The notes under the pieces: generated by a model | Told to the model about the DNA's origin: nothing | The model's input: the letters and a program-made list of their open reading frames with translations, nothing else | Databases searched by the model: none | In this document: piece by piece, positions 61,054-61,432 of the stretch | How positions within the stretch are numbered: position 1 is the first letter of the stretch | Layout of the letters: each line of letters opens with the position of its first letter | Source of the DNA: Escherichia phage EF1-1 | DNA length: 64,000 nucleotides | Sequence record: PQ571289 | Direction: 5' to 3' (one strand) | Translations under genes and position numbers: made by a program

Positions 61054-61096
61054 ATGCAGATGGGAATGAGAAGAGTTCTCATATGGAAATGCAAAT

Positions 61097-61115
61097 GATA
61101 ATGATTCGCATTTAG
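61097..61115. promoter_or_regulatory. Fur-box-like operator (weaker copy)
   Basis: gataatgattcgcatttag; first 9 nt match the Fur consensus GATAATGAT exactly, 13 of 19 overall. Confidence 0.3.
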
Positions 61116-61148
61116 GTTTATAAATGAGATTGATTCTTATTTGATAAG

Positions 61149-61167
61149 GTAAATGATAATCATTCTC
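61149..61167. promoter_or_regulatory. Fur-box-like operator (strong copy)
   Basis: gtaaatgataatcattctc matches the Fur box GATAATGATAATCATTATC at 16 of 19 positions; palindromic. Confidence 0.4.
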
Positions 61168-61432
61168 ATTTAGAGAATGACGCGCAGGGGCGGTGTTTGT
61201 CTCGCGCTCCCGTGTCCCCTCGCCATGTAATAAGAATAACAGATCCAGCCAGGAAAGCAAGCGATTATTTTTATCTTTACATTTCTTTACAAATATATAG
61301 CGCCCAGCCTCCCGGCGATCGACCTTCCAACCGGTGCCCCCTGGTATGTTAGCCCCGCCTTTACGCCGTGGGGGTGGCGCTTCCTCTTCTGTATGTAAAA
61401 CAGTATAAGCCCGATCCCTGGGCTTGTCAAGA

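Follow-up and report, generated by a model that had tools for sequence, protein, structure and literature searches.

The injection-stop region of phage T5 contains repeats and palindromes that have been described since 1987. The palindrome array within it, at 9472-9637, brackets the calculated shear point of first-step transfer at 9618 (10.1101/866236), and papers of 2020, 2023 and 2026 (10.1101/866236 and 10.64898/2026.04.02.716235 among the sources) assign no function or binding partner to these repeats and palindromes. The same array lies ~25 bp left of the major nick annotated at 7.9% of the T5 chromosome. Fur operators normally overlap promoters, and the overlap of 7-1-7 units at a 6-bp offset allows two Fur dimers to bind on opposite faces of the DNA. 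Sites for host factors are also known on phage DNA, as in the Fur-regulated stx1 promoter of Shiga-toxin prophages and the IHF site I1 of lambda cosB, which lies in the packaging region. Two-step DNA injection is not known to occur in phAPEC8-like phages, and a literature search returned no paper connecting Fur to phAPEC8-like or T5-like phages.

The window, a 64,000-nt stretch of Escherichia phage EF1-1 (PQ571289), comes from a Phapecoctavirus, a phAPEC8-like myophage of E. coli. The array described here occupies an untranslated zone of ~800 bp between the end of one transcription block and the early genes. To its left, a + strand intrinsic terminator (60679-60713), read from the sequence as a GGCTCCTAC...GTAGAGAGCC stem-loop followed by a T-run, closes the upstream + strand operon, whose last gene (60081-60623) encodes a NADAR-domain protein by Pfam; an ARNold terminator is annotated at the equivalent position in phAPEC8. 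An AT-rich segment of ~25% GC (60843-61052) lies between the terminator and the array and contains two 72-nt direct repeats, 138 bp apart and 82% identical in a repeat search. These are lineage-specific, iteron-like repeats, and different direct repeats occupy the equivalent place in Justusliebigvirus, Vequintavirus, Henunavirus and one 146-kb IMG/VR contig. To the right, the first strong early promoter (61809-61837, + strand, TTGACG-17-TATTAT, 10/12 consensus match) heads a rightward run of small early genes. Promoter-plus-hairpin modules resembling it recur at 62175-62238 and 63417-63480.

Between 61064 and 61171, four 21-bp palindromes with the consensus AAATGAGAAT-N-ATTCTCATTT start exactly 29 bp apart. 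Their architecture is 10-1-10 around a core of TGA[T/G]AAT-N-ATT[A/C]TCA, and in two positions a second site is present at a 6-bp offset. The first unit, U1 (61064-61084, GAATGAGAAGAGTTCTCATAT), scored 14.1 bits with a Fur position weight matrix (PWM) and ranked fifth in the window. U2 (61087-61113, AAATGCAAATGATAATGATTCGCATTT) is a composite 27-bp palindrome formed by overlapping Fur-type sites at 61087 (14.0 bits) and 61093 (21.7 bits, rank 2); its 27-bp architecture also occurs in BF23 and T5 as AAATGCGAATCATTATCATTCGCATTT, and a repeat_region is annotated at roughly the same position in phage anhysbys. U3 (61122-61142, AAATGAGATTGATTCTTATTT, 16.9 bits, rank 3) is near-identical to the BF23/T5 sequence AAATGAGATTGATTCTCATT. 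The strongest site of the window, U4 (61151-61171, AAATGATAATCATTCTCATTT, 24.1 bits, rank 1), is identical over its 21 bp in Klebsiella phage 05F01 and the T5-like phage Spc35, and is overlapped by a weaker site that starts 6 bp away at 61145 (10.9 bits). The first-pass annotation had reported a cluster of Fur-box-like palindromes here, which is real but larger than described, the higher-order pattern of four units at 29-bp intervals having been missed. Its two cited strings, GTAAATGATAATCATTCTC at 61149-61167 and GATAATGATTCGCATTTAG at 61097-61115, are where it placed them, while its ATGAGAA/TTCTCAT inverted repeat exists but at 61066-61082 rather than 61070-61086.

The Fur PWM was made directly from the E. 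coli K-12 genome using 14 Fur-regulated promoter regions; it was seeded with the Fur consensus, and its 14 sites are the best matches within known Fur-regulated promoters rather than footprints. A scan with such a matrix, as proposed by the first-pass annotation, placed the four phage sites (14.1, 21.7, 16.9 and 24.1 bits) at or above genuine E. coli operators, for which leave-one-out scores ranged from 6.1 to 19.4 bits. The best two phage sites (24.1 and 21.7 bits) exceeded every leave-one-out real site, and the phage consensus AAATGAGAATCATTCTCATTT scored 23.0 bits. Sites of at least 14 bits numbered five within 401 bp, compared with 0.0075 expected from local shuffles, and six within the 64-kb window, compared with 0.39 expected from whole-window shuffles. 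The string at 61149-61167 matches the 19-bp Fur consensus GATAATGATAATCATTATC at 16 of 19 positions and is the sole match in the window with three or fewer mismatches, a level reached by none in 100 dinucleotide shuffles. Two E. coli operators contain long stretches of the phage sites unchanged: the ryhB box has ATAATCATTCTCATT and the fhuA box ATAATCATTCTC, and U4 and the ryhB Fur box agree over 15 consecutive bases. As in classical Fur boxes, 7-1-7 units overlap at a 6-bp offset at 61087/61093 and 61145/61151, and likewise in BF23 and T5. Among the E. coli sites selected for the PWM, those of the ryhB, fhuA, fecI, oppA and exbB promoter regions contain the 'G variant' half-site TGAGAAT/ATTCTCA. 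At the fourth half-site position, G outnumbers T by 36 to 27 in phages, compared with 5 G to 19 T in E. coli (Fisher p = 0.0035, with the sites being phylogenetically non-independent). The RcsB box (TAAGAATATTCCTA type), with a similar half-site but a spacing one base shorter, was considered an unlikely alternative identity on account of that spacing.

A search for related loci seeded with the NADAR protein yielded only five. The comparison covered Phapecoctavirus, Justusliebigvirus, Klebsiella phage 05F01, Vequintavirus, Henunavirus, Mydovirus, T5, BF23 and Spc35. All related myophage regions compared, which represent four named genera and unclassified relatives, have the array in the same position. 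Every related locus compared contained at least one site of at least 13 bits in the intergenic zone, and most contained three to six. In the myophage loci such sites were confined to the intergenic zone, and the BF23 left terminal repeat had three isolated extra sites elsewhere. The flanking direct repeats vary by lineage and the palindromes are constant. Such motif arrays are also borne by IMG/VR contigs that have no similarity to the reference sequences used here. Directly after U4 begins a conserved GC-rich non-coding block (61172-61339, TTTAGAGAATGACGCGCAGGGGCGGTGTTTGTCTCGCGCTCCCGTGTCCCCTCGCCATG...), 70-98% conserved across Stephanstirmvirinae and Vequintavirinae. In ETEC-TG, a deposited natural isolate, the segment 61340-61721 is deleted and both the array and the GC-rich block are retained.

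Similarity to T5-like phages was observed directly by BLAST, in which the array matched the left terminal repeats of Spc35, BF23 and DT57C, among others, over 55 nt at 82-85% identity that reached into the spacers. Judged by sequence and layout, the array and the T5 injection-stop palindromes E-I (direct repeat C) are related. The likeness continues into the GC-rich block, in which GCGCAGGG is also found in palindrome J of T5 and BF23, and TTGTCTCGCGCT aligns with T5 TTGCCCTGCGCT, the site of annotated nick 1. Neither this relationship nor the genome-terminus setting had been seen by the first-pass annotation.

In two relatives with mapped ends, a short direct terminal repeat starts in or beside the array. 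The terminal repeat of BME3 is 342 bp as mapped by PhageTerm (PMC12210895); it begins 2 nt before a Fur box and holds a second cluster, within a record that is internally duplicated. That of KPP-1 is 514 bp (PMC9862379) and has one site inside and four just outside. From these relatives we infer that the zone around the array contains the boundary of a short direct terminal repeat, that is, the virion DNA end and the concatemer junction, and the GC-rich block at 61172-61339 probably lies inside the repeat. No terminal-repeat coordinates for a Phapecoctavirus were found in the literature, and the ETEC-TG and ECGD1 records, which start near this region, revealed no repeat. Logan contig L038 stops 3 nt short of U4, at 61148, although contig ends near palindromes can be assembly artefacts. 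Across IMG/VR and Logan the palindrome is enriched at contig ends, which is not strong evidence for a terminus because palindromes can themselves break assemblies.

The reading that we favour, with a probability of roughly 0.55, is that the array is a conserved cis-acting element of four to six host-Fur-type operators, putatively occupied by Fur at the chromosome terminus or concatemer junction, and acts there rather than as a gene switch. The most likely binder would be the host's own Fe2+-Fur, whose binding is predicted from the match of the sites to its operators. Several Fur dimers would assemble on the array into one nucleoprotein complex. This complex may act on the DNA end by affecting concatemer-junction processing and packaging or the entry of DNA, or it may serve the junction as an insulator or a roadblock to transcription; it would not switch a neighbouring gene. 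A Fur homologue encoded by the phages themselves was rejected as the binder, given that tblastn with E. coli Fur as the query, run on 50,697 phage records, found no Fur-family gene in Stephanstirmvirinae, Vequintavirinae or Demerecviridae. A pre-early protein in common with T5 was also rejected, since tblastn with the BF23 terminal-repeat (pre-early) proteins, A1 and A2 included, detected no homologue in the window or in the flanks of the myophages compared. Several points weigh against the favoured reading. The sites do not overlap a promoter as Fur operators normally do, and the DnaA boxes found beside the T5 array have no counterpart here. If Fur had an essential architectural role, the phage would also come to depend on host iron status, which is awkward for T5 because its FhuA receptor reaches its highest abundance while Fur is inactive.

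A bolder form of this proposal holds that Fur is the host factor still lacking for the T5 injection-stop signal, and likewise for an equivalent terminal element in rV5/phAPEC8-like myophages. Loading of Fe2+-Fur onto the array would then control DNA entry or concatemer-end processing, and so let these virulent phages sense cellular iron at the opening or closing step of infection. Since the T5 injection stop has the same array, a role of Fur as host factor can be tested at that site too. We regard this extended form as improbable.

A different protein may be the real binder, given the excess of TGAGAAT over TGATAAT in the phage sites. A phage-encoded DNA-binding protein, such as the small terminase subunit or another end-processing factor, could recognize the palindromes, with the likeness to Fur boxes arising only because both are AT-rich 7-1-7 palindromes; the first-pass annotation had likewise offered, as its alternative, a phage repressor whose operators resemble Fur boxes. 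The phage consensus TGAGAAT rather than the host-typical TGATAAT is consistent with this, as is the placement of the array where packaging and terminus signals are expected. The regular 29-bp spacing in both phage groups is that of an array for a dedicated protein, and the extension of T5 similarity into the spacers fits a transferred module. However, no candidate is detectably common to the T5-like siphophages and the rV5/phAPEC8-like myophages, as compared across the 64 kb here and the T5-like left terminal repeat with a few kb beyond, and all A2 homologues sampled across the phage collection were in T5-like genomes of ~100-120 kb. The direct repeats also differ between groups while the palindromes remain constant, as would be seen if the repeats were bound by phage proteins and the palindromes by one host protein common to all. 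The occurrence of the same arrays in viral contigs dissimilar to the reference sequences argues in the same direction. We regard a phage-encoded binder as unlikely, though by no means far-fetched.

The first-pass annotation suggested that the sites gate an iron-responsive small RNA or short peptide starting at about 61170-61200, and a leftward transcript from inside the array would be a variant of the same iron-repressed promoter. U4 resembles the ryhB operator, and ~22 bp past it a 28-nt stretch (61194-61221, TTGTCTCGCG...CCCTCGC) echoes the ryhB promoter and 5' end with 10 + 7 identical bases at the same spacing. This stretch, however, has no -10 element, with GGTGTT at the expected place. 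No sigma-70-like + strand promoter overlapping or directly following the sites was found; weak + strand matches at 61005-61034 would direct transcripts through the array, and the only overlap of the sites with a potential -35/-10 or start site is a weak minus-strand match inside the array (TTTATA-18-TATCAT, 9/12, 61124-61095). The only strong conserved promoter nearby is a sigma-70-type promoter on the minus strand (61430 to 61402, TTGACA-17-TATACT, 11/12 consensus match), the TTGAC of which is invariant in an 8-phage alignment despite differing spacers. It lies ~230 bp away, fires leftwards to the array without being overlapped by it, and is dispensable, since it falls inside the ETEC-TG deletion.

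The annotation's statement that no substantial ORF lies downstream was essentially right, with the + strand clear until 61973. On the minus strand, an 88-aa ORF (61433-61699, phrog_19316, PHROG match 4e-58, no Pfam match) reads towards the array from 260 bp away; the Vequintavirus and Henunavirus loci lack it, its deletion in ETEC-TG shows it to be dispensable, and it was considered a neighbour rather than a part of the element. A short peptide from the 17-codon frame with ATG at 61177 was rejected given that the start is not conserved, being ATA in two relatives (Justusliebigvirus and Vequintavirus). A search of 60000-62500 against Rfam at E<=1 gave no match, and RNAalifold on the 8-phage alignment of the downstream block gave no covariation (term +2.41). 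A structured RNA transcribed from the conserved minus-strand promoter was thus rejected as the main function, given the lack of covariation and the missing promoter in ETEC-TG. A promoter-gated gene, conserved ORF or covarying RNA is absent next to the array, and the proposed iron-responsive product was not supported; regulation of an iron-repressed promoter is accordingly quite improbable.

Alternatively, the array may be a decoy, in which replicated genomes, at hundreds of copies, titrate Fur, derepress iron uptake and RyhB, and so feed iron to phage enzymes such as ribonucleotide reductase. Multicopy Fur boxes derepress the Fur regulon, the established principle of the FURTA assay, and a decoy has no need of a gated gene. 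Several sites per genome score in the uppermost part of the Fur range, and T5-like genomes have two copies of the array because it is inside the long terminal repeat. However, T5 keeps the array despite destroying host DNA within minutes (10.64898/2026.04.02.716235), which would make derepression of host genes pointless there. Titration also gives no reason for the fixed place beside the terminus, the conserved spacing or the conserved adjoining GC block, and we consider it highly improbable. Chance, by which intergenic DNA of 25-30% GC over the surrounding ~400 bp happens to hold NATWAT-like hexamers on a raised background of AT-rich motifs, has a negligible probability and is refuted by shuffling that kept the local AT-richness (0.0075 sites of at least 14 bits, compared with the five observed), by the exact 29-bp spacing, and by conservation of the array across subfamilies and T5-like phages although the flanks diverge.

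With the injection-stop palindromes as top-scoring predicted Fur operators, a concrete candidate becomes available in the form of a named, purifiable host protein for which mutants exist. An unrelated group of coliphages with therapeutic use has the same array in its terminal-repeat zone. If Fur binds, a global regulator that senses metal would take on an architectural or checkpoint role on the DNA of virulent phages, and how well therapeutic phages of the phAPEC8, rV5 and T5 types work could depend on the iron available in the gut or a food matrix. Even without Fur binding, the array is a conserved cis element of the chromosome end, in a zone that annotation pipelines now leave blank or cover with spurious ORFs.

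Compared with known systems, the array shares the 19-bp, 7-1-7 motif of E. coli Fur operators, especially the clustered operators of ryhB, fhuA, fhuF and fepA-fes (Chen et al. 2007, PMC2189734). Its sites score equal to or higher than validated operators, and it resembles them in site clustering, in neighbours that overlap by a 6-bp offset, and in long stretches identical to the ryhB and fhuA boxes. Unlike these operators, the phage array has no promoter overlap and no controlled gene, has non-overlapping units at a regular 29 bp with G-favouring half-sites (TGAGAAT), and sits in the terminal non-coding region of a virulent phage. The stx1 promoter similarly presents a host Fur box on phage DNA, but there the phage is temperate and a single operator covers a cargo-gene promoter, whereas here a promoterless array is present in virulent phages. 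The IHF site of lambda cosB offers a proposed analogy, being a host protein site with an architectural role among phage-specific repeats by the terminase cutting site; lambda uses IHF at one site and has cohesive ends, whereas several sites for the metal-dependent Fur are proposed here, in association with direct terminal repeats.

The closest counterpart is the T5 injection-stop region (Repeat Region 3, palE-palI/DRC; Davison, 10.1101/866236; AY587007). In T5 the repeat is 10 kb, with the array ~500 bp inside its inner boundary, and is accompanied by paired DnaA boxes, nine DRD repeats, the major nick and the transfer genes A1 and A2. Neither the 64-kb window nor the flanks of the myophages compared showed any of these. 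For DnaA boxes, no match to TTATCCACA with one or fewer mismatches was present at 58315-62461, and the whole-window count was at chance level. Despite these differences, both arrays consist of 21-bp and 27-bp palindrome types at 29/35-bp spacings, both are followed by a GC-rich element containing GCGCAGGG, and both belong to a long untranslated zone linked to a terminal repeat.

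The region that the first-pass annotation had flagged for Fur-box-like palindromes contains a family of four palindromes, unnoticed there, which share the form AAATGA[G/T]AAT-N-ATTC[T/G]CATTT and whose starts lie exactly 29 bp apart (61065, 61094, 61123 and 61152 by repeat finder). The array consists of U1 (61064-61084), the 27-bp composite U2 (61087-61113), U3 (61122-61142) and U4 (61151-61171). Both Fur-like strings quoted earlier are present at 61097-61115 and 61149-61167, the latter being a 16/19 match to the Fur consensus and the sole match with three or fewer mismatches in 64 kb (none in 100 shuffles). 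The ATGAGAA/TTCTCAT inverted repeat also exists, at 61066-61082 rather than 61070-61086.

A symmetric 21-bp Fur matrix, refined iteratively starting from the Fur consensus, was derived from 14 Fur-regulated promoter regions of E. coli K-12 MG1655 (fepA-fes, fepD-entS, fepB-entC, feoA, ryhB, oppA, tonB, acnA, fecA, fecI, fhuA, cirA, fhuF and exbB). The array scores 24.1, 21.7, 16.9 and 14.1 bits, ranks 1, 2, 3 and 5 among all window positions, and U2 holds an additional overlapping site 6 bp leftwards (14.0 bits); genuine E. coli sites score 6.1-19.4 bits (leave-one-out). Sites of at least 14 bits are expected 0.39 times in mononucleotide shuffles of the whole window, and the local AT-rich 401 bp contain five against 0.0075 in shuffles. 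The half-site TGAGAAT/ATTCTCA, un-Fur-like at first sight, is found in the matrix-selected sites of the ryhB, fhuA, fecI, oppA and exbB promoter regions; 15 consecutive bases are common to U4 and the ryhB site, and 16 to a Vequintavirus copy and the fhuA site. The matrix scan upholds the 'Fur box' label, the earlier observation is confirmed and strengthened, and on sequence grounds the palindromes are Fur operators of the highest class.

The array lies in a long stretch devoid of credible genes. The final plus-strand gene encodes a NADAR domain (60081-60623) and is followed by a terminator, an AT-rich segment with two 72-nt direct repeats (60843-61052), the palindromes and a GC-rich block (61172-61339). 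Beyond these lie an 88-aa minus-strand ORF with no assigned function (61433-61699) and, from 61809 rightwards, strong sigma-70 promoters heading small early genes. Two early-promoter modules are near-identical (62175-62238 and 63417-63480, with a related copy near 63870-63910), each consisting of TATTGACAAC...TTTTTAATCTGATAAGATGTATCACATA and then the hairpin GGGCGGCGGAATGGTCCACCGCC with a small gene directly after, and these repeats are the exact break points of several public contigs (ends ~62224). As Escherichia phages DE16, ZCKP1 and phAPEC8 match the 1.4 kb surrounding the array at 96-97% identity, the window was assigned to Phapecoctavirus (Stephanstirmvirinae), virulent myophages of ~150 kb. 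Phages B15, A150, C2, ABPW7 and PsgM04F, labelled as infecting Campylobacter, Acinetobacter or Pseudomonas, are 79-97% identical here to E. coli phapecoctaviruses or vequintaviruses, and their host labels look doubtful.

The motif cluster occupies the same place in other phapecoctaviruses, Justusliebigvirus (pEC-M2929, VEcB and BME3), Klebsiella phage 05F01, one Vequintavirus, an Erwinia Henunavirus, Mydovirus KPP-1 and a 146-kb IMG/VR contig, always in the order of the lineage's own direct repeats, palindromes and conserved GC-rich block. The flanking direct repeats are completely different between lineages while the palindromes are constant, and in every myophage locus examined sites of at least 13 bits are confined to this single intergenic zone.

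A BLAST search with 281 bp around the array matched many T5-like siphophages, Spc35, BF23 and DT57C among them, close to the inner boundary of the 10-kb left terminal repeat. This zone is the untranslated Repeat Region 3, which contains the injection stop signal and where T5 DNA entry pauses once 7.9% of the genome is inside (10.1101/866236). In T5 the Fur matrix picks 9472-9637, where annotated palindromes G (9576-9596) and I (9611-9631) score 24.1 and 18.5 bits. The stretch brackets the calculated first-step-transfer shear point at 9618 (10.1101/866236), and the annotated major nick (7.9%, 9661-9668) follows ~25 bp to its right. The window and the T5-like arrays have in common the 21-bp and 27-bp palindrome types, spacings of 29 and 35 bp and then a GCGCAGGG element. 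Major nick 1 of T5 (AY587007), within CCCTGCGC, comes directly after the last Fur-type palindrome, and window 61180-61205, aligned with this region, reads GCGCAGGG and TCTCGCGC. The function of the T5-type palindromes was called unknown, and Fur was unmentioned, in a 2020 preprint (10.1101/866236), the 2023 BF23 paper and a 2026 T5 preprint (10.64898/2026.04.02.716235); a full-text literature search found nothing relevant linking Fur to T5-like, rV5 or Tequintavirus phages.

Short direct terminal repeats have been reported for Stephanstirmvirinae and Vequintavirinae (PMC12695924, PMC12210895, PMC9862379). The 342-bp repeat of BME3, assigned by PhageTerm (PMC12210895) in an internally duplicated record, starts 2 nt before GCAAATGATAATCATTATC, with a second cluster inside and two further boxes upstream. 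The 514-bp repeat of KPP-1 (PMC9862379), whose coordinates are coverage-derived, has one site inside and four just beyond its boundary. In a close relative, one public contig stops at window 61148, 3 nt before U4, an end of a kind that palindromes can also produce by breaking assemblies. Together these three boundaries suggest a position inside the array for the left end of the virion DNA. On this layout U4 and the GC-rich block would fall inside the repeat and U1-U3 just before its right-hand copy, and therefore the array would straddle the concatemer junction; for this phage, we put a terminus in or adjoining the array at an even chance. The BME3 record (PP239276.1, 1-790 and 146100-147371) holds more than one copy of a ~860-bp terminal unit that includes the 342-bp repeat, and N bases occur in it as well. 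Such a structure has the look of a tandem duplication or of an artefact from assembly or closure, and the repeat coordinates taken from this record therefore need care. In the Qin prophage of E. coli K-12, nohA, homologous to the small terminase subunit of phage lambda, adjoins the prophage cos region. Chen et al. 2007 (PMC2189734) place strong Fur sites (22.3 and 12.6 bits in their own model) ~230 bp upstream of this gene; these would again put Fur sites next to a locus for phage DNA packaging.

A search of phage records with E. coli Fur found no Fur-family protein encoded by any phage of these families. Homologues of BF23 pre-early proteins were absent from the window and the compared flanks, and for the T5 DNA-binding protein A2 every homologue sampled came from a genome of T5-like size. 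A pattern scan of IMG/VR yielded at least 120 contigs (L042-L161) with exact AAATGAKAATNATTMTCATTT palindromes. Among the matches listed, 30 of 120 carry arrays of at least three sites within 300 bp, being 14 T5-like contigs, three like this myophage and 13 without similarity to the T5-like and myophage references, one of them at the start (1-300) of a 345-kb contig. Some dissimilar contigs carry five to seven tandem copies in non-coding DNA (example IMG/VR loci are L108 1-300, L065 5780-5910 and L104 1975-2115), and many matches listed are no more than a few hundred bp from a contig end, a position that may have a biological cause or stem from assembly. Because the motif is common to unrelated phages, whose hosts have the same Fur specificity, and is flanked by lineage-specific repeats, the pattern points to a host protein as the array binder. 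Counting against this is an excess of G at the fourth half-site position, with 36 G to 27 T in phages versus 5 G to 19 T in E. coli (p = 0.0035, uncorrected for relatedness); this bias may reflect a different binder, affinity tuning or, outside a promoter context, avoidance of GATAAT hexamers that resemble -10 elements. The array could possibly serve as a Fur decoy, a role for which T5 is a poor fit, given that it degrades the DNA of its host within minutes (10.64898/2026.04.02.716235).

Gating of a small RNA or short peptide, as first suggested, is not supported, given that no plus-strand promoter was found overlapping or following the sites, no Rfam family at the array region and no covariation by RNAalifold (term +2.41) in the strongly conserved block from U4 to ~61430, and that the ATG of a 17-codon frame at 61177 is lost in relatives. 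The one promoter match within the array is weak (9/12, minus strand). Conservation across subfamilies extends to a sigma-70 promoter (61430->61402) that points left, at the array. Phage ETEC-TG (OR786310.1) has a natural 382-bp deletion of 61340-61721, with a 6-nt microhomology at the junction, which removes this promoter and the 88-aa ORF; both are therefore dispensable. Given that the array and the block up to 61339 are kept, the essential part, which behaves as an element at the DNA level, is the array with the adjoining ~170 bp. Window 61194-61221, TTGTCTCGCGCTCCCGTGTCCCCTCGCC, resembles TTGTCTCGCGATCAGGAAGACCCTCGC at the ryhB start (L021, the E. coli ryhB region, ~44010-44050, minus strand), with 10+7 identical bases at the same spacing; the stretch directly follows the Fur box in ryhB and starts ~22 bp after U4 here, where it has no -10 element, and the likeness could be chance or a remnant. 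'Hypothetical proteins' annotated over the GC-rich block (window 61042-61464, minus strand; phAPEC8_00257 and Schickermooser gp168-169, plus strand) vary in strand and frame among records, some with 'frameshift' notes, and almost certainly result from spurious gene calling in a non-coding element.

That the array is a conserved cis element is close to certain, and Fur probably binds it in vitro. The reading we favour, at a probability of about 0.55, is that, at the chromosome end or concatemer junction, the array would recruit several Fe2+-Fur dimers into a complex acting on the DNA itself; any specific downstream function is individually unlikely. Candidate actions are packaging or end processing, by analogy with IHF, which acts in these steps at lambda cosB; DNA entry, to which the location in T5 points; or a block to transcription across the junction, including from the conserved leftward promoter, which would parallel polymerase pausing at the T7 concatemer junction. 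The array opens an old question to experiment. Fur operators are an already known kind of element; a promoterless array of them in the terminal zone of these virulent phages, and also in the injection-stop region of T5, is a novel form of which no description was found.
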